Shown: in pieces, positions 7,423-59,596 of the stretch | Numbering within the stretch: position 1 is the stretch's first letter | How the letters are laid out: each line of letters begins with the position of its first letter | UHGV virus genome: UHGV-1370141 | Length of the DNA stretch: 64,000 nucleotides | Strand: one strand, 5' to 3' | Source of the DNA: a virus | Notes under the pieces: model-generated | What the model saw: the letters and a program-made list of their open reading frames with translations, nothing else | Database searches by the model: none | Told to the model about the DNA's origin: nothing | Program-made: the position numbers and the translations under genes

Positions 7423-7905
7423 TTAATTAACCGTAGCTACGTATTTCTTAACCAGATAGGCGAATTCATTAACGCCGATATCGCCAAACCAAACCAGGTA
7501 ACCTGGGTCGACGTTGTAATAGTAACCTACCACGACATGGGTCTGCGGGTTATAAAGCGTCGTGATGTATTCCCAACCACAAGCATTGCTTTTGCAAGCG
7601 GTAGATTCAAGCCAGATTTTGCCGTTGATTTGCACGGGAATAACATCGCCGCCAGGACCATCCATCACGCCATCTTTACCGAATAACCCGTCTAGTCCGA
7701 CAGGTTTCAACGCTTTATCGATTGCGGCTTTATAAGTCGCATCGTCGGTATAGAGTGTGTTGATATCAGGACATGCACTGGGTTGTTCAGCCCAGGCTTC
7801 CGGGTTACAACTAAGTGCTTGTTTTACACTAGCCGCTTCTGCGTTAAAGGTAAAGCCCGTGAACAGAACCGCCACGAAGAACATCAGGGTATGTAAACGT
7901 TTCAT
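7423..7905 (-). CDS. Small secreted protein (signal peptide)
   Basis: MKRLHTLMFFVAVLFTGFTFNAEA signal; contains ACKSNACG loop. Confidence 0.55.
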   Translation of the reverse strand: MKRLHTLMFFVAVLFTGFTFNAEAASVKQALSCNPEAWAEQPSACPDINTLYTDDATYKAAIDKALKPVGLDGLFGKDGVMDGPGGDVIPVQINGKIWLESTACKSNACGWEYITTLYNPQTHVVVGYYYNVDPGYLVWFGDIGVNEFAYLVKKYVATVN

Positions 7906-7923: not shown

Positions 7924-8310
7924 TTATTCAGCGCTACGATTTAAAGTAATACGACCGATCAGTTCTGCATTATGGAAGAAGTCCACAGCAGTATAGTTAC
8001 CGACCTCTAACGGATGAATACTGACTGACATGACTTTTGGTTGTTCGCAGGCGATATCCGTCAGACGTTGGTAGACTTGTGCACGAGTGTCAGCAATGAG
8101 TAATCCGGTACACGATTCACCACGCACTAAACGATAAACTTGCAGTTTACCGAAACTGCGCATTAACGTAGGCGACTCATCCGGGTTGATAATGGGTGAA
8201 TCAGGAGCCGGTTCGTAATGGCGGACGTCCGAATCGCCGAAAGCATAAGTGGCCGTAATACCGACTGCACAGAAAATAATGATGGTATAAAGTATAGTTC
8301 TGATATTCAT
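7924..8310 (-). CDS. Small secreted protein (signal peptide)
   Basis: ATG at 8310 (ORF track uses GTG at 8316); MNIRTILYTIIIFCAVGITATYAFG signal. Confidence 0.5.
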   Translation of the reverse strand: MNIRTILYTIIIFCAVGITATYAFGDSDVRHYEPAPDSPIINPDESPTLMRSFGKLQVYRLVRGESCTGLLIADTRAQVYQRLTDIACEQPKVMSVSIHPLEVGNYTAVDFFHNAELIGRITLNRSAE

Positions 8311-49636: not shown

Positions 49637-50257
49637 TTATTTCATTCCGTTCTGAGAAAGTGTTGTCCCTGCAAGATGCTTAATAACGATCTTGACAGGC
49701 AAATTACTATTCTCGTACTGTACTTCGGTTTCAGACAAATCGGTGATATCGACAACTTTAGAAGGTACTTTCGCTAAGACAACCCGAATGGTGTGGGTTA
49801 TCGTACTGGCTGTGGTCTTTGTATTACTAATGTAGAAGTACGCATCAATAATACCGCCGTCTTCTGCCAGATAAACCAATTTATTTTCCAACAGACACTG
49901 GGTATAAATTGACACTCCAGATAATTGCGAAATCCCCAGTCTATTATTAACGTCAACTGTTGTTTTGCAGATTACCGCACCACCTGTCAACGTTTTTTCT
50001 ACCACCATATTTCCCGATAAGGTTTTTGCATCCATTTTTGGTACAATCGGATGAGTGCCGTCAACAAACAACCCATCGCTGTTAGACTTAAGGATGTTAT
50101 TCGCCGACGGACTCACTGTAACCTCGCCACCCCCTAATTTCTCAATCGGGAGTTGGTATTCAGTTTGTTCCTTAGACGCTAAGACTACTACACCCGTGAT
50201 GTCTTCTGAAAGTGTCTCCAGTTCATGAATGCGCACCTTTCCTACCAGTTCAGCCAT
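49637..50257 (-). CDS. Short receptor-binding / fiber protein with conserved N-terminal anchor domain
   Basis: N-terminus MAELVGKVRIHELETLSEDITGVVVLASKEQTEYQLPIEKL matches N-termini of 52032..56513 and 59597..60058. Confidence 0.55.
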   Translation of the reverse strand: MAELVGKVRIHELETLSEDITGVVVLASKEQTEYQLPIEKLGGGEVTVSPSANNILKSNSDGLFVDGTHPIVPKMDAKTLSGNMVVEKTLTGGAVICKTTVDVNNRLGISQLSGVSIYTQCLLENKLVYLAEDGGIIDAYFYISNTKTTASTITHTIRVVLAKVPSKVVDITDLSETEVQYENSNLPVKIVIKHLAGTTLSQNGMK

Positions 50258-50772
50258 TAGTGGCCTCCGAATGTTAAGACACGGTTATCTGCGGTAACGA
50301 TTAAATCGTTGTCTTTTACTACAGCGGCTTCTTCATCGTTACCGAAAACCAGAACGGAGAATTGGCCTTTATAACCTAACGAGTTGGGTGAAACCTGTAA
50401 CGTTACAGCGTCTTTCCCTACGGTAAATGATTCGTCGGTAAGATCGTCGGGTTGTAAATTACAACCACAAGCCGCGTTAATTCCGTCGATTAGATCGTGT
50501 GCGGTAAAGCCATTACCGGAAACCTTTACCAGAATAGGTTGCTGGTTTAACCACCGCTCTGCGGTTAAACGGTTGTAATAAATCTGTAACGTTCTGTTGT
50601 CCGGACGTTTTATCTTTACAACAGCAGTGGTGTCACGATCCATTTCGTTACTGGTCTTTACGTCGCTGACTTCAACCTCGTTCTCTTGCAGGTCGAGCTG
50701 GAGGTCATGGTTAACCAGTGAAATAACCATGTTAAGTGAAGTTAACGACAAATCTGGCGTGAATTGTTCCAC
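50257..50772 (-). CDS. Hypothetical protein, paralog of 60024..60587
   Basis: GTG start with GGAGGT RBS; N-terminus FTPDLSLTSLNMVISLVNHD vs YVPDLSLTSAELVVALINHD; TAATG overlap with downstream gene. Confidence 0.55.
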   Translation of the reverse strand: MEQFTPDLSLTSLNMVISLVNHDLQLDLQENEVEVSDVKTSNEMDRDTTAVVKIKRPDNRTLQIYYNRLTAERWLNQQPILVKVSGNGFTAHDLIDGINAACGCNLQPDDLTDESFTVGKDAVTLQVSPNSLGYKGQFSVLVFGNDEEAAVVKDNDLIVTADNRVLTFGGH

Positions 50773-50870: not shown

Positions 50871-51377
50871 TTAACTGATTTTGAAATCTCTTAACGTACC
50901 AGTTGATCTCATCACGTTTTGAAAAGCAGTGCTGATGTTATTAGTCCAGTAGTAATGCTGTCCGTTAATAACCTGCTGATAGGTCAGTGCGCAAGTGTTA
51001 CCGCCTAGATTTACAGTGATGTTAGAGGCCCTGCCGCCTTGTAAGTAAACCGCTAAACTAGGCCTTGCGTTGCCAACTACCGTCGTTAACTGTAATTCGA
51101 TACCTACTAAAGTTCCCACCCCGCAGTTACCCGCGTTTTGAATGGTCCCCTGATTTTTCTGGTTTAACGGCCAATTTGGTCCTACTGCGCCCCATTTCTT
51201 ACCTAAAGAATCTCTATATGCGGCAGTTGCAATTTTACAGCCCATAGATCTTCCCACCATTTGACTCATCATAAAAGGTCTACTCAATCCTAATTTACTA
51301 CCCGCAGCGCTCATCCACTGTTCGCCCGTTTCATTCCTAGCTGAAGATCCGACCCATCCTGACGCTACCCCCCCCAT
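50871..51377 (-). CDS. Putative fiber-tip adhesin-like protein (paralog of 51394..52032 N-terminus)
   Basis: AAGGAGGG RBS; N-terminal GWVGSSARNETGEQWMSAA shared with neighbour; G8 run spans the start codon (ATGGGGGGGG). Confidence 0.5.
   Translation of the reverse strand: MGGVASGWVGSSARNETGEQWMSAAGSKLGLSRPFMMSQMVGRSMGCKIATAAYRDSLGKKWGAVGPNWPLNQKNQGTIQNAGNCGVGTLVGIELQLTTVVGNARPSLAVYLQGGRASNITVNLGGNTCALTYQQVINGQHYYWTNNISTAFQNVMRSTGTLRDFKIS
51368..51375. repeat. G8/C8 homopolymer overlapping the start codon of 50871..51377
   Basis: Plus strand C8 at 51368-51375 = minus-strand ATG-GGG-GGG-G. Confidence 0.8.
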
Positions 51378-51393: not shown

Positions 51394-52032
51394 TTAAACA
51401 CGTGAACCGTATATTGCACCTACTGCGTCCCATCTTGGCGCATTACCAGTAACAGCTTTACCAGCTGCTCCGCCGTTATATTCTGTACCGTTACCATGAG
51501 TATTACATCTTCCTCCAGCAGCACCGACATTACCACCCGAACCGCCTGTATATGCACTAAGAGACCCCTCACCAACAGATCCTCTACCAGGAGCGGAAAT
51601 AGTACCAGCAGCTGCACCGGAACTCATATGAGAGGAAGACCCACCAGCACCGCCTGGCGAGTTAGAACCACCGTTGCCTCCTCTGCCGTATACTGTAACC
51701 CCAGGATTGATGATGAGTGTAATATACGAATTTGGAAGATTGCTAGGGAATTCTAAACAAGGAACCCCGCTACTATAAGACACTAAATCCCCTGTAATGG
51801 TCACAACGACAGCAGTAGAGCCTAAAGAACGTAAATAGTTAATAAGAGTATCCTTATTATAGCTATGGTTAGCACCAATAGAATAATGGACCTCTTTTGA
51901 TTTTCCCGCCAATTGCGACATCCAGCCTGGAACCGGCACACCAAGTGTGCGCATCGCGCCAGACATCCATTCGTTACCAGCTTCAGCTTTTGCTGAAGAA
52001 CCAATCCAACCACCTACGCCGACAACTGCCAC
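51394..52032 (-). CDS. Glycine-rich adhesin-like protein (gp38-type architecture), putative
   Basis: GTG start coupled to fiber stop; conserved N-terminal domain then Gly-rich tracts (GRGGNGGSNSPGGAGG..., TGGSGGNVGAAGG). Confidence 0.5.
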   Translation of the reverse strand: MAVVGVGGWIGSSAKAEAGNEWMSGAMRTLGVPVPGWMSQLAGKSKEVHYSIGANHSYNKDTLINYLRSLGSTAVVVTITGDLVSYSSGVPCLEFPSNLPNSYITLIINPGVTVYGRGGNGGSNSPGGAGGSSSHMSSGAAAGTISAPGRGSVGEGSLSAYTGGSGGNVGAAGGRCNTHGNGTEYNGGAAGKAVTGNAPRWDAVGAIYGSRV

Positions 52033-55000
52033 TAGGATCTCCCTTTGATTTCGTTAACCTCTTGACGCAACGCTTTCATACCCTCTACTAACAGCGCAAT
52101 AACGCCATTGTAGTTTAGACGTAAACGTTTTTCGCCTGAAATGGCATCATCATCCTCAGACACAAGTTCAGGTAACGCTTCTAATGCGTCTTGAGCAATT
52201 AGACCTACAGAAGTTTGCCAACCGTCATCCGGATGCTGAATTTCGTACAAATAACCAGTTAGTAACTCTAACCGATCCAAAGCCTTATCCAGCTTCACCA
52301 GATTACGTTTGTTACGACGGTCAGAACGAATCTGTACGTCGTTAAACGAACCGTTACCGCTGCCAGTAACGTTATGACCAAAGGTTACTTGGCCATTAGC
52401 GTTATTAAAATACAACGGACGTAGTCCGTTCCAGGAACCCGTTGCAGCTTGTCCGGCGTCGGTTACTAAGAAATAGGTATTGGCACCATCGTTACGTAAC
52501 ATAAAGCCGTAGTTGCCGTAAGCGATTCGAAAATCAGGGTACTTAGTGACCAATTTACCGTTAACGGTTAAATCGCCACCTATAGTACCGCCCCCTGACG
52601 GTAACGCACCGATGTCACCAGCGTTAGGTTTGTTGTGTGTGCTGTAAATCAGATAGACGGTACCGTCTGTTAGTCCTGCGGGTTTATTAGCCGTATAGCT
52701 TGGCGATGTGTGAATCGTTACGTTGGCATTACTAGTGTAGTCCCACTGAATATTAACACCGGTGGCGTAATTACCTATTTCAACATAAATATCGTAAGTG
52801 TCACCAGATGTATTCACCCATGCAAAATTAGTGAAGCCGACTGAGGTCAGTCGCCATAACGCACCAGTAATACCTTTTGGATTCCCATTTCCTGCACGCA
52901 GAACCAGCTCAGAGATACCTGCTTGATGCGGGGAACCAACGTTAAACCCTGCACCACCAATCAGGCTTATGTAAACCACGGAACTGGCTTGTGGCATCGT
53001 TACAGTTGCTAGTTTGAACCATCCGGCACCACCATTAAAAGACACAGTTGTTGTGTTCGCGGCACCAACATTTCGTAAGAATTTTCTCTTATCTGGAATA
53101 TCGGCACCGTTCTGTTTCTTCTGCAATGACCCACCGGCCAATTCTACAGTTTGGCCAAGATTTAAACTTTCAGCCGTTATTTCGATGTTTTTAGTGCCGT
53201 CAAACGCAATACCGTTGATGGTTCTTGCAGTTTGCAACTTTGTTGCAGTGGCCGCGTTTCCGGTGGTCGACTGATTACCCGTTTGGTTTACTCCAGGAAG
53301 ATTAACGTCTTTCGTCCCATCGAAAACCACACCACCGATCCTACGTCCTGTTTGTAACTTGGTAGCGGTTGCTGCATTACCTGTCGTATTCTGGTTGCCT
53401 TGCTGGTTAACCCCCGGTAAATTGATATCCCCAGTACCGTCAAAGGTAACGCCGCCGATTCTGCGAGCGGTTTTCAGTTTCGTCGCGGTAGCGGCGTTGC
53501 CGGTAGTATCTTGATTACCTGTGGTATTTACGCCAGGAATACTGTCACGGGCAGTATAAACTTGTGCCCAATCTGACCACGGCGCATCTGCCGTATCACG
53601 TCGACTACGAATATAAACTGGCGCGTGCGCACCACTCGTGCCCGACCAACCAATTAACAACTCGCCTTCGCCTAGCGCAGCAGAACCACCCAAATGCAGT
53701 AAGTTACCATAAGCGGTCGGATAACCGTTATTGTAAACTTCGTACATCTGAATACCAGGCGTACCTTTGTTTGAACCAGTCAGTGCAGTAACACGTCCAC
53801 GTCCTACCAACGTGTTGATATTGATGTCTCTAGACCCATCAAATTTCACACCGTTGATGTTTCGAGCCGTTTGTAATTTGGTTGCGGTTCCCGCGTTCCC
53901 AGAGGTGTTTTGATTACCTTGTTGGTTAACACCTGGGAGGTTAACGTCGCCGCTACCGTCGAAGGCGACCCCACCAATTCTACGTGCCGTCTTTAATTTA
54001 GTGGCGGTTGAAGCATTGCCTGTTAACTCACCTGCTAACCCTTTTGCAAAGGTCTGTTTTTCTGCCCAGGTGTGCGCTGCGTTCAATACAGGCATCTGGC
54101 GTGGCGTAATTGTTCGACTACCTTTCTCACCAGCGATACGAACAGCAAAGAAGCGATAGTTGGCAGTAGACACCGTACTACGCCAAACCAACATGCTCCG
54201 ACCGGTGCCGGTGTCATCAGACGGCCCTACAAGGATGTTAACTAAGTTACCGTCAATCACACCCCAATCCATTCCCGCAGGAATATTTTTCATGGTGTTC
54301 AACGGTGACGTTAACATCTGACCGGGAACGAAGTCGTAGGTTTGCCAGTCTAACGGGTCAACCTTAGCAGCTACACCACCAATGCCTAAAACTAACGGAA
54401 GTGAATACGAGGTGAAAACCTCTCGCCACCCACTCCAAATGTTACCCGTACGGATACGTTGGAATTTACGACCTTTAGTTTCTCTACCCGTGCCGTATGT
54501 GGTATAATTCTGTTCGACCCCTGTACCGTCTAAGCGTAAGGTAACTTCACAAACGCCTACCACGGTTTCGCTAGAAGAACCGATAAGTGGACCGTTAGTT
54601 GCCTCACCAGTGACACTGAAACGACCCGGTTTAACGAGATCGTTAAAATTGGCTTTAAAGAAAGCACCGTCAGTCTGATAACCAACCTGAATCCAATCTT
54701 CCCATTGTGGGTTTGATGAATCCCACGTTGCAGTCAAACCACGGACATACATTGTGCCACGACGCGTAGTGTATCGCTGCAACCGTCCGAAAAGACCACC
54801 TTCCATTACTTCTAGTACGCCTTGCGCGTTACCGCCTTCTTCAGGGTAATGCCGGTCGAACACCGCTAACGAACTGGACGAGTTCCGCCAGTTACCCATA
54901 TGCTCAGCGCCACCCAGAGAGTTCAAGTCTATAGAGGTAGACAGTGGGCGAACACCAGTGGTTACCATTCTCCACGGTGACCAGGGTCCATTAGTTCCGT

Positions 55001-56513
55001 TCCACACACCTGACAACATACGGTTGTACACGTTACCATTACGACAGGTAAAACGTTGCGCGCCACTGTAGTTGCCCGCTTTATACACTTCCAGATAACC
55101 GACTGCACCGTCTTCTGGGAAGTGTTTTGCCATCGACGCATTGGTTGATGTCGACTTAGACCACGTTCCTGTGTAATTAGCATCTGGAGCAAATGTGTTA
55201 ATATCAGCATCTACAGGCATTTCGCCACGGAAACGCAGGTAGGTATCAGGAGATAGGCCGATGTTGCGAGCAAAAGTTTCTTTATCTGGGATATCAGCGC
55301 CGTTAGAGTTTTTCTGTAACGCACCATTCGCTTTATCGACGGTAGTTTTCAAACCCAGGAAGTTAATGATATCCGCCGTCGACCCTTTCGCTAACAAATC
55401 GCGCGCAGTCGAGGTGAAATCCGCTAATCCCACCCGATTACTACCGGTAAAGTAAGGGAGTTTGTTTGCAGCGGTGGTGACTGCGGCAATCGCTGTCAGT
55501 AACGGACTTAACGGCTGTTTACCCGCGAGTTGGTTCGTTATCGTTGTCGCAAAGTTAGGATCGTTTCCTAACGCGGCTGCAATTTCTGATAACGTATCTA
55601 ACGTCTCGGGTGAAGAGTCCACTAATTCAGCAATCGCTTGCCGTACCCATGCCGTCGTTGAGACTGTCGTGTCGTTAGAATCCGCAGCAGGAGTCGGAGC
55701 TTTTACTACGCCAGTAAACGTCGGCGAGTGACGGTTTGCTTTTAACTGCAAATCATCATTTAACTGCTTAACCGTTGACGGTGTAGCCGCTTCCGTAACC
55801 GAGTCACTGGTTAAGGTATTATTAAGTTTAACGATACCTTTACTGGACGTTGTTGCATCAACGTTACCTTTTGCAGCGATTTCCTCTGCACGCTTAGCGG
55901 CTGCCTCAGAACGCGTTGCCGCATTCTCTGCGGTTTCTTTGTCTGAGGTAACTTGCGTTGCTGTAGCCTCTACAGAGGCTTTTGACGACTCTACTGACGC
56001 GACAGCTTCGTTAACTGCCGTAAGCGACTGTTCTACTTGACCGGCTTGTGTGGCAACAGTTTCTGCTTTCTTCGTAACGGTAGTCACCGCTTGTGTGACG
56101 TTGGCCTCGCTTGCCGCTACCGCTTGTGCTTTCTCATTAACGGACACAACCTGGGTATCTACCGCCGTTTTCGCGGCTAACACTTCAGTGTGTTTTGTAC
56201 CGACCTCAGTTGCTTTTTCGGTTACAGTTTGCGCTTGTTGAGCAACCGTAGCCGCAACGGTGTCAGTTTGTTGTTTTGCTGTTTCTGCTAAATTCTTTGC
56301 TTGTGTAGCCTGAGTTGCAGCTTCTTGTGATTGTGTTGCTGCTGCTTGTGCATCAGACACCGCATTACGCACGGTGTCAATATCTGCAACGATCTCACGG
56401 ACTGGTAACTTATAATCTTTCTCATCTTTGGAGAAAAGTAAAACACCTTCACCGATATCCCCGGTGTATGGACGTAAGTCGTGTAAACGAATTTTCTTTA
56501 CCGCTTTAGCCAT
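52032..56513 (-). CDS. Long tail fiber (1493 aa) with N-terminal anchor, coiled-coil stalk, 40-aa repeats and C-terminal intramolecular chaperone (S74-like) domain
   Basis: Anchor MAKAVKKIRLHDLRPYTGDIGEGVLLFSKDEKDYKLPV; fiber motifs ATPSTVKQLNDDL and PTFTGVVKAP; repeats TGNAATATKL.TARRIGGV.FDGT.D.NLPGVNQ; C-terminal SDRRNKRNLVKLD...GLIAQDALEALPELV chaperone-like. Confidence 0.75.
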   Translation of the reverse strand: MAKAVKKIRLHDLRPYTGDIGEGVLLFSKDEKDYKLPVREIVADIDTVRNAVSDAQAAATQSQEAATQATQAKNLAETAKQQTDTVAATVAQQAQTVTEKATEVGTKHTEVLAAKTAVDTQVVSVNEKAQAVAASEANVTQAVTTVTKKAETVATQAGQVEQSLTAVNEAVASVESSKASVEATATQVTSDKETAENAATRSEAAAKRAEEIAAKGNVDATTSSKGIVKLNNTLTSDSVTEAATPSTVKQLNDDLQLKANRHSPTFTGVVKAPTPAADSNDTTVSTTAWVRQAIAELVDSSPETLDTLSEIAAALGNDPNFATTITNQLAGKQPLSPLLTAIAAVTTAANKLPYFTGSNRVGLADFTSTARDLLAKGSTADIINFLGLKTTVDKANGALQKNSNGADIPDKETFARNIGLSPDTYLRFRGEMPVDADINTFAPDANYTGTWSKSTSTNASMAKHFPEDGAVGYLEVYKAGNYSGAQRFTCRNGNVYNRMLSGVWNGTNGPWSPWRMVTTGVRPLSTSIDLNSLGGAEHMGNWRNSSSSLAVFDRHYPEEGGNAQGVLEVMEGGLFGRLQRYTTRRGTMYVRGLTATWDSSNPQWEDWIQVGYQTDGAFFKANFNDLVKPGRFSVTGEATNGPLIGSSSETVVGVCEVTLRLDGTGVEQNYTTYGTGRETKGRKFQRIRTGNIWSGWREVFTSYSLPLVLGIGGVAAKVDPLDWQTYDFVPGQMLTSPLNTMKNIPAGMDWGVIDGNLVNILVGPSDDTGTGRSMLVWRSTVSTANYRFFAVRIAGEKGSRTITPRQMPVLNAAHTWAEKQTFAKGLAGELTGNASTATKLKTARRIGGVAFDGSGDVNLPGVNQQGNQNTSGNAGTATKLQTARNINGVKFDGSRDININTLVGRGRVTALTGSNKGTPGIQMYEVYNNGYPTAYGNLLHLGGSAALGEGELLIGWSGTSGAHAPVYIRSRRDTADAPWSDWAQVYTARDSIPGVNTTGNQDTTGNAATATKLKTARRIGGVTFDGTGDINLPGVNQQGNQNTTGNAATATKLQTGRRIGGVVFDGTKDVNLPGVNQTGNQSTTGNAATATKLQTARTINGIAFDGTKNIEITAESLNLGQTVELAGGSLQKKQNGADIPDKRKFLRNVGAANTTTVSFNGGAGWFKLATVTMPQASSVVYISLIGGAGFNVGSPHQAGISELVLRAGNGNPKGITGALWRLTSVGFTNFAWVNTSGDTYDIYVEIGNYATGVNIQWDYTSNANVTIHTSPSYTANKPAGLTDGTVYLIYSTHNKPNAGDIGALPSGGGTIGGDLTVNGKLVTKYPDFRIAYGNYGFMLRNDGANTYFLVTDAGQAATGSWNGLRPLYFNNANGQVTFGHNVTGSGNGSFNDVQIRSDRRNKRNLVKLDKALDRLELLTGYLYEIQHPDDGWQTSVGLIAQDALEALPELVSEDDDAISGEKRLRLNYNGVIALLVEGMKALRQEVNEIKGRS
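53165..53560 (-). repeat. Three or more tandem 120-nt (40-aa) repeats inside the tail fiber gene
   Basis: Period 120 nt seen at 53211, 53331, 53451; diverged at DNA level. Confidence 0.6.
53810..54045 (-). repeat. Two further copies of the 40-aa fiber repeat
   Basis: Protein repeats ...GNASTATKLKTARRIGGVAFDGSGDVNLPGVNQQGNQ / ...GNAGTATKLQTARNINGVKFDGSRDININ. Confidence 0.5.
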
Positions 56514-56590: not shown

Positions 56591-59500
56591 TTATTGCTCC
56601 GGTTTTAATGGAACATCTTCTACCGTTAACGTAACGTCTAAGGCCGCTTGACTGTGGTCAGTAATCGCTAAGTCACGATAAATATTAGCATTGGCTCCGT
56701 AGGTTTTATAAGTAACGTAGAGACCTAACGCACGTAGCACTTCCCCAGTGTAGAACCCATAAGCCATTCCGTTATCAGAAGACTCTCGAGCGGCTGGAGA
56801 CCACGCTCCATTAATCGGCTTATTCGGAATTGAGGTAATCGTAAACCCTTCACCTAACTCCTTAATTGCCGCATTAACCACTTTATCGTAGTTCGGATTC
56901 GTTGCACCGGCGAGTAATGCCCAGCAACACCCTGCTAACCACAACCCACACATATGTGCGGTGAAGTCGTTTTCCACCCAAACAGCTTTATCCGGTGCTG
57001 TAGGGAACTCGTTAGGAGTGTGGCCATTAAACCGATCCACAAACCCACCTAGCCAATTCACCCAGTTGTCAATATAGCTTGTTAACGCCTCGGGAACGTC
57101 TTTACCTCGCAGTTTCAGTTCGTACCAACAGCGACATGCGGCATGAAACGCACGAGGCTGATACCCTGCCCAAGGATGGTCATCACCCCAATGGAACGTC
57201 GTCCAGGTATCCGCTTCTCCGTAGCTGTAGTTGTCCCAACGGTTCCAGATATAAGCTGCACAACCAGGTCCTAATTCCCCAATTTGCTGTTGGTAAGCCA
57301 ACTGCGAATCGTACAGGAATTGAATCTGGTTATCTAACCACAGCTTATACCGGTCGTCTTTGTGGATACTGTACATAAACGGATACTGATAACCCGGATA
57401 AGGCATCCCGTGCCAAGCACCTAACTGTTCCGAACCTTCTAAGTAGCTGTTCGTGAACGGTATCGTACCCGGACAGTACGCTAACGAATCCAATCGGTAA
57501 TCTACAATCGTACAATCACCCACTTTTGCATCAAACTCTGCACCACCGCGTAAGGCAATACGGAAGGTTAAAATATAACCATCGTCTTTATTAAAGACCG
57601 GTGGAACATCGTTAACACAATAGTAAGCAAAGTGCGCATGGTCAACCGTAGAGTCAGGAAGAATCGTGACCTGATCCACCTTATCGAAATTCGGTGCTGA
57701 AGGTTTAGGGTCAGCGTCTGTGTGGTCTGGCTGATAACCGGAAAGTGTGGCTTCATCTGGATTCAACGTTACCTGACGCCATTCGTTGTTTGTGTTGGGT
57801 AACATCCACCACCAACGCCAGTTATCACTGTCGACTAAACGCAAGTTAAAATCTGCGTCTGCACGGTAAACAATAGAAACGGGTTTTACCTTCTCTTCAG
57901 CGGTTAACCAAAACCCGATAATAAACCCGGCACTGTCATCAGGAAATTCAGCTTCTACCACGGTACCCGCGCGACCATCGTAAATGCTATCCTCAAAACG
58001 TTCTTCCCATGTACAACCACCATAGTCCGAACACGCACGGGCTTCAGCTATCAGGTAGTCTCCCCCTTCTGGGGTGGTAATACGGGAAAGTTGGCCTAAG
58101 TCAATATCGTACTGTTTAACGGTATTTACCGTAGACCGAGGTAAGGTTAAACCGTACCAGTTTACTTCCTCGGTATCAGCTTTCGCAGGGTTAATGTTCA
58201 CCATCGCTTTACAGTAGACAGGATCGCCATTCTTACAAACTCCACCGTACGTGACACGAAGTTTGGAGTCTTTGTTAATCCTGAATCGAACCGCTTGCTG
58301 CTCCATAAAGTGTTGTACCGCTTCAGGCGCATGGATGGTAATGTCTCCATTCTCATCACGGCCGTAGGTAACACTTACGGTGTCCGGGTAATTGAAGTCG
58401 TACGAAATGCCATCCGTAAACGGTGTTTCCGCAGCGGTAGAACGACGGAAGAATTTATCTACCGCATCAATATACGTGTACTCGTGTGCTGTGTAGAAAG
58501 CACAGTCTAACGCTTGTTTGTATTTCTCTTCACCTGTTATACGCCACAGCAAATAACAGGCGTCGATAAACCACAGTTCAGCATCAGCGGCGTTACCGTA
58601 TTGGTTTTTCGACCCTAAGAACGGTGTGTGGACCGGACGGTTGTGCCACGGCTCATTACGTTTAAATTCGTAACCGCCGTGTTCGACGGGAAGTTTTACC
58701 GCGTAGTTAATTAAATAGACACCGTTTAACTGTGTGTCTTTTAACTGTACGGTACCTTTATCAGCGTCTGCTAATCCCGTCTCAATAATTTCACTATCCT
58801 GGATTTTGTTACCCGTCCAGGCAATTATCCAGTCAACGTCGTATTTAGGAGCTTTTGTTGCAGACCCGCCCCAAAGCGGGGTGTAACCTGTAGCATTATT
58901 TAGCAGTGTTGGCCAATCGACCCAAGCGATGCTTTCGTAAGGCTTATCAGGATTAGTAATAACGTGAGTTAAAACGTCTTCCCAATTAATCGACCCTTCT
59001 TTGTCTTCCTTGATAATCTGTACATCTGCGTTAATCGCGGCCCAGGCAGGGTGGCCACGATGTGCAAACGTACAGATATCCAAATACTCTCCCCAGAAAG
59101 GTGCACCGTGCGGTATCTTACATTGGCCATTTGTAAACCTTACAGGAACACATTTATACCCGCCGTTGGTAGGTTCCGTAGGGTGAATAGGATAGTGTGC
59201 TAATACCGGTTCTTTCCCGTTTACTAACCAGTTACAAATCCGACGCTGGGGTGTTGTCGGAATAGGCTGTCCGGCGTAGAAGTACGTGTTGTACGCATCC
59301 CAGGCGTGTTTCGCAGCATCTAACCATCTTTCGTCTTTTGTTGCGATATACATGTGGCAATAACCGATAATGTGTAACGACTGACCCTCGGTCGTTGCGT
59401 CACCATTCGGTTGGTATTCCGCCATGGTATCAGCGATGAAATGACGGTTATTCGACAGAACACCTTCTTCGTTTTGAATATAGTGTTCGTTGTGCGCGTC

Positions 59501-59596
59501 GTGAGTCGTTCCCGTATTCCGGGTAACGAAGGATTGGTGTCCGTAAGCTAACGATAACGCGTAGCTAATCGCGTGACGCTGAAAATGTTTTCTCAT
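56591..59596 (-). CDS. Large Trp/Tyr-rich protein (1001 aa), candidate enzymatic (glycan-degrading?) receptor-binding module; in frame with upstream anchor ORF
   Basis: ATG immediately follows the TAA of 59597..60058 in the same frame; no RBS upstream; no recognised catalytic motif by eye. Confidence 0.5.
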   Translation of the reverse strand: MRKHFQRHAISYALSLAYGHQSFVTRNTGTTHDAHNEHYIQNEEGVLSNNRHFIADTMAEYQPNGDATTEGQSLHIIGYCHMYIATKDERWLDAAKHAWDAYNTYFYAGQPIPTTPQRRICNWLVNGKEPVLAHYPIHPTEPTNGGYKCVPVRFTNGQCKIPHGAPFWGEYLDICTFAHRGHPAWAAINADVQIIKEDKEGSINWEDVLTHVITNPDKPYESIAWVDWPTLLNNATGYTPLWGGSATKAPKYDVDWIIAWTGNKIQDSEIIETGLADADKGTVQLKDTQLNGVYLINYAVKLPVEHGGYEFKRNEPWHNRPVHTPFLGSKNQYGNAADAELWFIDACYLLWRITGEEKYKQALDCAFYTAHEYTYIDAVDKFFRRSTAAETPFTDGISYDFNYPDTVSVTYGRDENGDITIHAPEAVQHFMEQQAVRFRINKDSKLRVTYGGVCKNGDPVYCKAMVNINPAKADTEEVNWYGLTLPRSTVNTVKQYDIDLGQLSRITTPEGGDYLIAEARACSDYGGCTWEERFEDSIYDGRAGTVVEAEFPDDSAGFIIGFWLTAEEKVKPVSIVYRADADFNLRLVDSDNWRWWWMLPNTNNEWRQVTLNPDEATLSGYQPDHTDADPKPSAPNFDKVDQVTILPDSTVDHAHFAYYCVNDVPPVFNKDDGYILTFRIALRGGAEFDAKVGDCTIVDYRLDSLAYCPGTIPFTNSYLEGSEQLGAWHGMPYPGYQYPFMYSIHKDDRYKLWLDNQIQFLYDSQLAYQQQIGELGPGCAAYIWNRWDNYSYGEADTWTTFHWGDDHPWAGYQPRAFHAACRCWYELKLRGKDVPEALTSYIDNWVNWLGGFVDRFNGHTPNEFPTAPDKAVWVENDFTAHMCGLWLAGCCWALLAGATNPNYDKVVNAAIKELGEGFTITSIPNKPINGAWSPAARESSDNGMAYGFYTGEVLRALGLYVTYKTYGANANIYRDLAITDHSQAALDVTLTVEDVPLKPEQ

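Follow-up and report, generated by a model that had tools for sequence, protein, structure and literature searches.

What a tail fiber binds with, and whether its length can vary, is the question raised by a gene that joins 40-aa repeats to a chaperone-like C-terminus. The earlier note had placed a long tail fiber with these elements at 52035-54045 of the window (the whole 64-kb stretch analyzed); that region is real, and covers merely the C-terminal ~670 aa (45%) of a 1493-aa ORF (Table 1). Its identification as a tail fiber held up, as the ORF matches Gp34_trimer, Peptidase_S74, and Phage_fiber_2 in Pfam, the structures of Mu S and T4 gp34, and 63 PHROG families, mostly tail-fiber families among the matches listed. 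A search of NCBIfam with the fiber gave weak SMC/Rad50 coiled-coil noise alone, in the Ala/Thr/Gln-rich N-terminal part. The best explanation for the whole, with a probability of about 0.8, is that the region forms the distal half of a mosaic fiber whose S74 domain would cleave itself off, after which a gp38-type adhesin would cap the exposed tip.

The genome carrying the fiber is that of a ~225-kb jumbo phage (myovirus) that has Erwinia phage Asesino and Seoulvirus among its relatives. Asesino and Lh1B, the two cultured relatives that were compared, lack the cassette at this position, and a megablast of the fiber gene against the phage collection returned short 10-12% matches alone, with no near-identical cultured phage there. 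Among the related loci, the fiber gene appeared split in two public assemblies, and both splits are most likely artefacts: in L004 it coincides with a 10-N scaffold gap, and in L003 (a Logan assembly) with a 1-nt frameshift, which may be an assembly error or real.

Table 1. Features of the fiber gene and the two genes downstream of it, with positions in the window
Feature	Residues (aa)	Position	Strand	Basis
Tail-fiber gene	1493 aa	52032..56513	(-)	ORF list; TAG stop at 52032-52034
N-terminal segment, probable baseplate anchor	N-terminal ~45	56379..56513	(-)	anchor role predicted from sequence
Phage_fiber_2 motif	221-259	55737..55853	(-)	Pfam PF03406, E = 1.9e-9
Junction motif 1, ...NGADIPDK..F.RNIG	386-424	55242..55358	(-)	56% identical to aa 1117-1155, E = 1.4e-11
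Two duplicated knob domains	432-517 and 524-610	54684..55220	(-)	self-BLAST, 35% identity, E = 4e-16
Repeat run 1: unit 1 and unit 2 core	832-871 and 872-899	53817..54020	(-)	
Knob and half-unit SIPGVNTTGNQDTT, between repeat runs	905-990 and 991-1004	53502..53801	(-)	
Repeat run 2: units 3, 4, and 5 (core)	1005-1044, 1045-1084, and 1085-1112	53178..53501	(-)	
Junction motif 2	1117-1155	53049..53165	(-)	self-BLAST
Distal variable domain	1156-1301	52611..53048	(-)	phrog_3299, phrog_21552
Gp34_trimer-type beta-prism	1302-1368	52410..52610	(-)	Pfam PF21446, E = 1.4e-16
Tip segment	1369-1396	52326..52409	(-)	aligned to S16 gp37 6f45_A just ahead of cleavage site
Intramolecular chaperone / Peptidase_S74	1397-1493 (97 aa)	52035..52325	(-)	PF13884 and 6f45_A alignment
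Adhesin 1, gp38-type receptor-binding protein	212 aa	51394..52032	(-)	Pfam GP38, E = 5e-45; Gp38_N
Adhesin 2, Gp38_N with SSU5-type adhesin body	168 aa	50871..51377	(-)	Pfam Gp38_N, E = 1e-18

The N-terminus of the fiber recurs at the N-terminus of the ORF at 49637-50257 (BLASTP: 39% identity over 41 aa, E = 7e-8), and junction motif 1 is also present in the Mu tail fiber S (5yvq). The two duplicated knobs sit inside a T2-type gp37-homologous block, aa 417-826, which is 54% identical to aa 105-515 of gp37 from phage WL-3, and the third knob, between the repeat runs, is weakly similar to knob 2 (self-BLAST, E = 0.014). Further towards the C-terminus, the distal variable domain is replaced by unrelated sequence in relatives P0017, P0022, and P0097, and the beta-prism that follows aligns to Mu S (5yvq) and T4 gp34 (4uxe/5nxf).

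The chaperone-like C-terminus is of the S74 type, as had been proposed. The PF13884 match at aa 1397-1451 (E = 3e-10, 40.7 bits against a cut-off of 22) covers profile positions 1-57 of 58, and the domain forms the last 97 residues of the protein, after the Gp34_trimer domain. With phmmer, aa 1377-1491 aligns to the S16 gp37 chain 6f45_A (E = 1e-12), SDRRxK site included. In S16, gp37 removes its own last 113 residues by cleavage at S^SDRRIKK (DLNVS^SDRRIKK), which uncovers the gp38 dock (PMC7917993). The predicted cleavage motif in the present fiber is IR^SDRRNK, with Ser1397 (codon 52323-52325) at the scissile position and Lys1402 (codon 52308-52310) five residues downstream. In a motif survey of 121 sequences (120 homologues and the query), 57 end in an S74 domain, and every one of these (56 homologues and the query) carries the Ser...Lys motif unchanged, 96-97 residues from the C-terminus. 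By homology to S16 gp37, K1F endosialidase, and T5 pb1, the S74 domain would start trimer folding from the C-terminal end and would then cut itself off between Arg1396 and Ser1397 through the Ser1397/Lys1402 pair. The tip segment would thereby become the mature C-terminus of the fiber and the docking site for an adhesin, by analogy with S16 (PMC7917993). The residues ahead of the predicted cut are NDVQIR in this fiber and RDLNVS in S16, so the docking surface need not equal that of S16.

Immediately downstream of the fiber gene come two genes for gp38-type adhesins, neither of which appeared in the earlier note. The GTG start of adhesin 1 overlaps the fiber stop codon by 1 nt (TAGTG), a coordinate overlap also found in SSU5 and in locus L004, and the two genes are probably translationally coupled. 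Adhesin 1 matches S16 gp38 (6f45_D, E = 2e-30) across the attachment, beta-helix, and polyglycine parts, and its alignment to S16 and PP01 gp38 (6f45_D, 9v85_A) includes their glycine-rich C-terminal part. Adhesin 2 is preceded by its own AAGGAGG ribosome-binding site and matches phrog_1121 'tail fiber adhesin' from end to end (E = 5e-44) in place of the polyglycine receptor-binding domain, which is absent from it. The two proteins have only the ~40-aa attachment domain in common. Adhesin 1 has the motif of this domain, GW[IV]GSS...G..WMS...P.W, with all three tryptophans, and adhesin 2 keeps the first two with a methionine in place of the third. Adhesin 2 is a likely second adhesin, with the same N-terminal attachment domain and a different body.

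The position of gp38-type genes directly downstream of an S74-bearing fiber makes this a locus with a T2/S16-type fiber tip, and it changes the functional reading of the C-terminus: by homology to S16, loss of the S74 domain would expose a dock for a separate receptor-binding protein, and the tip would be capped by a monomeric gp38-type adhesin as in T2/S16-type long tail fibers. It could instead be argued that the fiber binds its receptor through the distal variable domain, like T5 pb1 and T4 gp37, and that the gp38-like proteins are assembly chaperones outside the virion. T4 gp38 is indeed a chaperone and not an adhesin (PMC12032242), and the swapping of aa 1156-1301 among relatives is what would be expected of a receptor-binding element. 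However, the similarity of adhesin 1 to the adhesin-type gp38 of S16 and PP01 extends over its whole length, the glycine-rich receptor-binding part included, and both gp38 paralogues retain the attachment motif that in S16 is inserted into gp37 (PMC7917993). Moreover, a separate chaperone would be redundant because the fiber has its own intramolecular one. We consider receptor binding by the fiber itself very improbable.

Upstream of the tip, the repeats follow the consensus GNAATATKLxTARxIxGVxFDG...LPGVNQxGNQxTT. At least five copies with a period of 40 aa (120 nt) had been reported; five were recovered, with the period exact within each run and with unit starts at aa 832, 872, 1005, 1045, and 1085 (window 53142-54020). 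They do not form the single tandem array described before: two runs, of two and three units, are split by the ~86-aa knob and the half-unit SIPGVNTTGNQDTT, which matches the tails of the 40-aa units in self-BLAST, and the terminal unit of each run retains the first ~28 residues alone. Among units 1, 3, and 4, protein identity is 78-88%, far above chance, and the divergence at the DNA level noted earlier was confirmed for all unit pairs (47-69% in-register identity). The longest exact DNA string common to any two units within the gene is 6-10 nt, Tandem Repeats Finder reported no array in 50-56 kb even at a minimum score of 30, and the repeats are detectable only at the protein level or with gap-free seeds.

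Within the mature fiber, the 40-aa units may serve as shaft modules that trimerize into thin segments spacing the knob domains. They were considered as Phage_fiber_2 repeats and rejected as such, because PF03406 matches aa 221-259 alone and is absent from the repeat region at E <= 10; the same scan of aa 824-1130 detected no fiber-repeat family. A sequence search of aa 824-1124 against all PDB chains gave nothing below E = 0.3, and modeling aa 824-1130 as a monomer with AlphaFold2 (8-sequence alignment) gave an unusable result, with a mean pLDDT of 41 and a pTM of 0.21. Judged by its sequence, the unit is a distinct motif outside Pfam coverage. It is also very common, occurring in at least 8000 proteins at E <= 1e-10, and a unit so common yet lacking a Pfam model or a solved structure represents a small annotation gap worth filling.

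The suggestion that the array could expand or contract by recombination, and so alter fiber length, finds some encouragement in the relatives. Repeat number is not constant among them: the second run has three units in the window and in loci L002, L006, and L007, and four in L003, L005, and L014, so that close relatives differ by whole units, while in the wider family runs span 1-6 units and totals 1-13. On the basis of unit-wise DNA identity, the second run is composed of units a, b, and d in the window, a, c, and d in L002, and a, b, c, and d in L014, with losses or gains apparently at different positions. A recombination-prone length switch that frequently grows and shrinks in the phage population is nevertheless improbable in our view. 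The DNA identity between units in the gene falls short of what recombination or slippage would need, given the short exact strings, none above 10 nt, the low in-register identity, and the lack of any array found by Tandem Repeats Finder. Synonymous sites between units are at or beyond saturation (165 codon differences observed against 144 expected, summed over unit pairs; 28/33 against 20.1 expected for adjacent units 3 and 4, z = 2.9); selection for codon divergence between units is not claimed, the excess over saturation being merely modest. Compared at the DNA level, each unit resembles the unit at the matching position in other genomes (78-100%) more closely than it does any neighbor, so the copies are old and stable, and even the extra unit pair in the four-unit alleles is merely 74-75% identical in DNA. 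Frequent slippage in this genome, or ongoing expansion and contraction by recombination, is therefore unlikely, and the difference between three and four units reflects old whole-unit insertions and deletions together with allele exchange between phages.

The preferred reading, cleavage followed by adhesin capping, has its closest precedent in the tip of Salmonella phage S16 and T2-type phages (PDB 6F45), which has the same C-terminal S74 chaperone with SDRRxK and likewise a gp38 homologue directly downstream, with the attachment-domain tryptophans conserved. The present genome is that of a jumbo phage, whereas the S16/T2-type phages are Straboviridae, and in place of their gp34-gp35-gp36-gp37 chain there is here one 1493-aa protein that carries a probable N-terminal anchor of its own. 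The T2-type gp37 examined (WL-3) has one 40-aa unit and the chaperone where this fiber has five units, and S16/T2-type phages have one adhesin gene where there are two here. Salmonella phage SSU5 (tail fiber SSU5_021, adhesin SSU5_022) is a ~100-kb phage with another genome backbone, and matches aa 826-1492 in pieces by tblastn (59% identity, 36% of the query covered). Its fiber has a similar chaperone, DVYIR^SDRRSK, and its adhesin has the N-terminal attachment motif in common with adhesin 2, but it carries a single recognizable 40-aa unit and a single adhesin. Related fibers are carried by SSU5-like plasmid prophages of E. coli and Shigella.

More distant likenesses concern separate parts of the protein. 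K1F endosialidase, T5 pb1, and GA-1 gp12 belong to the same PF13884 family, with the C-terminal domain after a trimeric fiber domain and the Ser and Lys five apart at the domain start, as here. In those proteins the domain simply matures a fiber or spike that is its own receptor binder, whereas here, by homology to S16, cleavage would be linked to the uptake of a separate adhesin. T4 gp34 and Mu S have the Gp34_trimer beta-prism seen at aa 1302-1368, the present fiber has two copies of the Mu S-like junction motif NGADIPDK, and the P1 S fiber matches aa 245-1383 in pieces. Unlike the present fiber, those of T4 gp34, Mu S, and P1 S lack an S74 domain. The Mu and P1 fibers depend on a separate Tfa-type chaperone.

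The tandem adhesin pair was found in the window and in 6/6 of the examined related loci that come from or resemble large phage contigs, and was absent from every examined non-jumbo adhesin-bearing locus, SSU5 and a T-even phage among them. Literature searches on gp38-type adhesins in jumbo phages, and on SSU5 together with gp38, returned nothing specific. One processed fiber tip in the jumbo lineage may accept either a T2/S16-type polyglycine adhesin or an SSU5-type adhesin, giving mixed tips on a virion and two receptors, a proposal that we make tentatively and regard as rather doubtful. Adhesin 2 could also be taken up by a second fiber bearing an intramolecular chaperone, encoded elsewhere in the ~225-kb genome outside the window.

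The overall design is already well known, and what is new is the genome that carries it; the findings at this fiber locus do not overturn current understanding. They would extend the T2/S16 design, in which the chaperone is cleaved and an adhesin then docks, to a jumbo phage, a relative of Asesino and Seoulvirus, in which one gene combines putative shaft units, knobs, and tips, along with adhesins, from T-even, P1/Mu, and SSU5-type phages. If host range is to be predicted or engineered, the receptor-binding determinant to look at is probably the downstream adhesin pair and not the fiber protein.

The span described in the earlier note as a long tail fibre (52035-54045) falls within one minus-strand ORF in the ORF list and corresponds to the C-terminal ~670 residues (aa ~824-1493) of its product. 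This 1493-aa protein was assigned as a tail fibre because of its Pfam matches, its matches to 63 PHROG families, most of which carry a tail-fibre annotation among the matches listed, and the similarity of parts of it to solved structures of Mu tail fibre S, T4 gp34 and gp37 of Salmonella phage S16. The proposal that the fibre ends in a self-cleaving S74-type chaperone passed all in-silico tests. Peptidase_S74 scored 40.7 bits at aa 1397-1451 (cut-off 22; E = 3e-10), and phmmer aligned aa 1377-1491 with gp37 of S16 (PDB chain 6f45_A, E = 1e-12), including the SDRRxK motif and the C-terminal LNYNG...helix. In S16 gp37, the last 113 residues are reported to form an intramolecular chaperone (IMC) that is autocleaved after trimerisation at DLNVS^SDRRIKK (PMC7917993). 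The final 97 residues of the fibre start at Ser1397 in FNDVQIR^SDRRNKRNL, where ^ marks the predicted cleavage site, with Lys1402 five residues on, and by analogy we infer self-cleavage at Arg1396^Ser1397. Among 121 sequences (the query and 120 homologues), 57 end in the chaperone domain, and in every one of them the motif lies 96-97 residues before the C-terminus. The other 64, some of them partial, show no C-terminal IMC motif, suggesting that the shaft modules also appear joined to other tip types. Only one IMC-bearing fibre was found in the 64-kb window.

Directly downstream of the fibre are two Gp38_N-bearing genes that the earlier note had overlooked. Adhesin 1 matched S16 gp38 (6f45_D, E = 2e-30) across its attachment, β-helix and glycine-rich parts, and also PP01 gp38, 9v85. 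It begins with a GTG codon that shares one base with the TAG stop of the fibre (TAGTG), and GGGAG lies upstream; the fibre and adhesin coordinates likewise overlap by 1 nt in SSU5 and in L004, a related locus from another assembly. Adhesin 2 matched phrog_1121 "tail fiber adhesin" from end to end, and its attachment motif is also present in the SSU5 adhesin. Similarity between the two adhesins is limited to the first ~40 residues (53% identity), and the tryptophans that in S16 act as prongs inserted into gp37 are kept at three of three positions in adhesin 1 and two of three in adhesin 2. On the basis of the chaperone domain and the downstream gp38-type genes, the locus is predicted to be a T2/S16-type tip module.

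Features of the fibre locus (window coordinates; aa, fibre residues)
Feature	Window (strand)	Residues	Remarks
Tail protein	56591-59596 (-)	1001 aa	phrog_2871; upstream of fibre
Fibre	52032-56513 (-)	1493 aa	
Probable N-terminal anchor	56391-56513 (-)	aa 1-41	Common to 206-aa ORF; 39% identity, E = 7e-8
Ala/Thr/Gln-rich, probably coiled coil		aa ~46-220	Weak SMC matches
Phage_fiber_2 motif		aa 221-259	Pfam
Mu S-like junction motif	55242-55358 (-)	aa 386-424	
gp37-like block		aa 417-826	54% identical to gp37 of T2-type phage WL-3
Duplicated knobs	54684-55220 (-)	aa 432-517, 524-610	Within gp37-like block
Repeat run 1 (units 1-2)		aa 832-899	
Knob		aa 905-990	
Half-unit		aa 991-1004	
Repeat run 2 (units 3-5)		aa 1005-1112	
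Second junction motif	53049-53165 (-)	aa 1117-1155	Match to first copy, 56% identity, E = 1e-11
Distal domain		aa 1156-1301	Unrelated sequence in its place in relatives
Gp34_trimer prism		aa 1302-1368	Pfam, E = 1.4e-16
Tip		aa 1369-1396	
Intramolecular chaperone		aa 1397-1493	Pfam, phmmer
Adhesin 1	51394-52032 (-)	212 aa	Pfam GP38, E = 5e-45
Adhesin 2	50871-51377 (-)	168 aa	Own ribosome-binding site, AAGGAGG
DUF7941 protein	50257-50772 (-)		Between adhesins and 206-aa ORF; matches PHROGs annotated 'virion structural protein'
Fibre-like ORF	49637-50257 (-)	206 aa	First 41 residues match fibre N-terminus

The junction motif of 39 aa (L.K..NGADIPDK..F.RN[IV]G), which also occurs in Mu tail fibre S, lies where modules meet and may be a favoured site of crossover when fibre modules are exchanged. 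The two adjacent ~87-aa knobs are duplicates of each other (35% identity, E = 4e-16) and show weak similarity to the knob lying between the two runs of 40-aa repeats.

The shaft repeat, with consensus GNAATATKLxTARxIxGVxFDGxxDxxLPGVNQxGNQxTT, is present in five copies starting at aa 832, 872, 1005, 1045 and 1085 (window 53142-54020), spaced within a run by exactly 40 aa or 120 nt. The copy number, period and DNA-level divergence previously described were thus borne out, but the array is not uninterrupted, as a knob and a half-unit separate two runs, and the final unit of either run retains just its first ~28 residues. Protein identity among units 1, 3 and 4 is 78-88%, whereas in-register DNA identity across all unit pairs is 47-69%, the longest exact string common to any two units is 6-10 nt, and Tandem Repeats Finder detected nothing over the repeat region. 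Residues identical between units are mostly encoded by different codons (165 differing, summed over pairs, versus 144 expected from random codon choice), with 28 of 33 in the adjacent units 3 and 4 versus 20.1 expected (z = 2.9). The contrast in identity and the differing codons indicate that the duplications are old and maintained by selection on the protein; the codon excess is modest and could reflect selection against recombinogenic identity. Identification of the unit as the Pfam Phage_fiber_2 repeat was rejected, and searches with the repeat region found no Pfam family or PDB sequence covering it; modelling the region as a monomer with AlphaFold2 gave no usable structure (pLDDT 41). The unit is nonetheless widespread: the C-terminal 670 aa retrieved at least 8000 proteins, all with E <= 1e-10, and a single copy is found near the N-terminus of WL-3 gp37.

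Repeat number varies among close relatives, mostly on jumbo-sized contigs, with 2+3 units in the window and three related loci (L002, L006, L007) and 2+4 in three others (L003, L005, L014). The wider family carries 1 to 13 units in total, grouped into runs of 1-6 with inserts of set lengths (~93, ~237 and ~303 aa) between them. Window units share 78-100% DNA identity with their positional counterparts elsewhere and <=71% with non-counterparts, the b/c pair defined below excepted, so the units are positionally orthologous. The middle unit of the second run in the window matched unit 4 of the 4-unit allele (88%), and that in L002 matched unit 5 of this allele (92%), giving the arrays a-b-d (window), a-c-d (L002) and a-b-c-d (4-unit allele). 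These arrays show that whole units have been gained or lost, probably more than once or via unequal exchange between alleles. Such events were rare and old, units b and c being only 74-75% identical in DNA. The suggested expansion and contraction of the array therefore holds on an evolutionary timescale, but the data do not support frequent switching in this genome. Two public assemblies of related phages break within the repeat region, L004 at a 10-N scaffold gap (7805-7814) and L003 at a 1-nt frameshift (~7925-7945) that may be an assembly error. The split fibre genes were traced to these breaks and are most likely artefacts; since the fibre is then called as two ORFs, repeat counts from database proteins can mislead.

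The window derives from a jumbo phage, and DNA elsewhere in it showed 72-75% matches to the Erwinia phages pEa_SNUABM_29 and Asesino. The tail protein upstream of the fibre shares 77% identity with Asesino gp141 and ~71% with Seoulvirus proteins. In Asesino and E. coli phage Lh1B the tail protein is followed by small genes only, and by no long fibre/adhesin cassette, which argues that the cassette is a lineage-specific acquisition. The lineage was found in metagenomic contigs of 152-225 kb and two shorter contigs. Among the matches listed, fibre modules share 64-90% identity with proteins annotated in genomes of E. coli, Shigella, Enterobacter and Salmonella, suggesting an enterobacterial host. 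The shared N-terminus of the 206-aa ORF and the fibre suggests a common baseplate anchor; the equivalent position in L003 is occupied by a 706-aa protein containing SASA and DUF6645 domains. L003 and L004 carry a second DUF7941 gene, upstream of the tail protein or fibre, and DUF7941 proteins may be adaptors for fibre slots.

The locus passed the sequence-based tests for both a Peptidase_S74 domain and a gp37-IMC/gp38 module, and by analogy it would work like the S16/T2 long-tail-fibre tip, whose cleave-then-cap design is already well established. The chaperone would fold the fibre trimer and then depart, after which a monomeric adhesin would cap the tip. Unlike the S16/T2 tip, the module resides in a jumbo phage, for which our literature search found no description of a gp37-IMC/gp38-type module; the fibre consists of one long polypeptide and has five shaft units instead of one, and behind it come tandem adhesins that differ in their bodies. 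These bodies are T2/S16-type polyglycine and SSU5-type (phrog_1121). The window and all six related loci examined, which are from or resemble large phage contigs, carry the tandem pair; only one adhesin gene is found in SSU5, in a T-even phage and in other non-jumbo loci carrying such a gene. We tentatively propose, while considering it rather unlikely, a dual-adhesin tip in which the processed fibre would accept either of two different adhesins.
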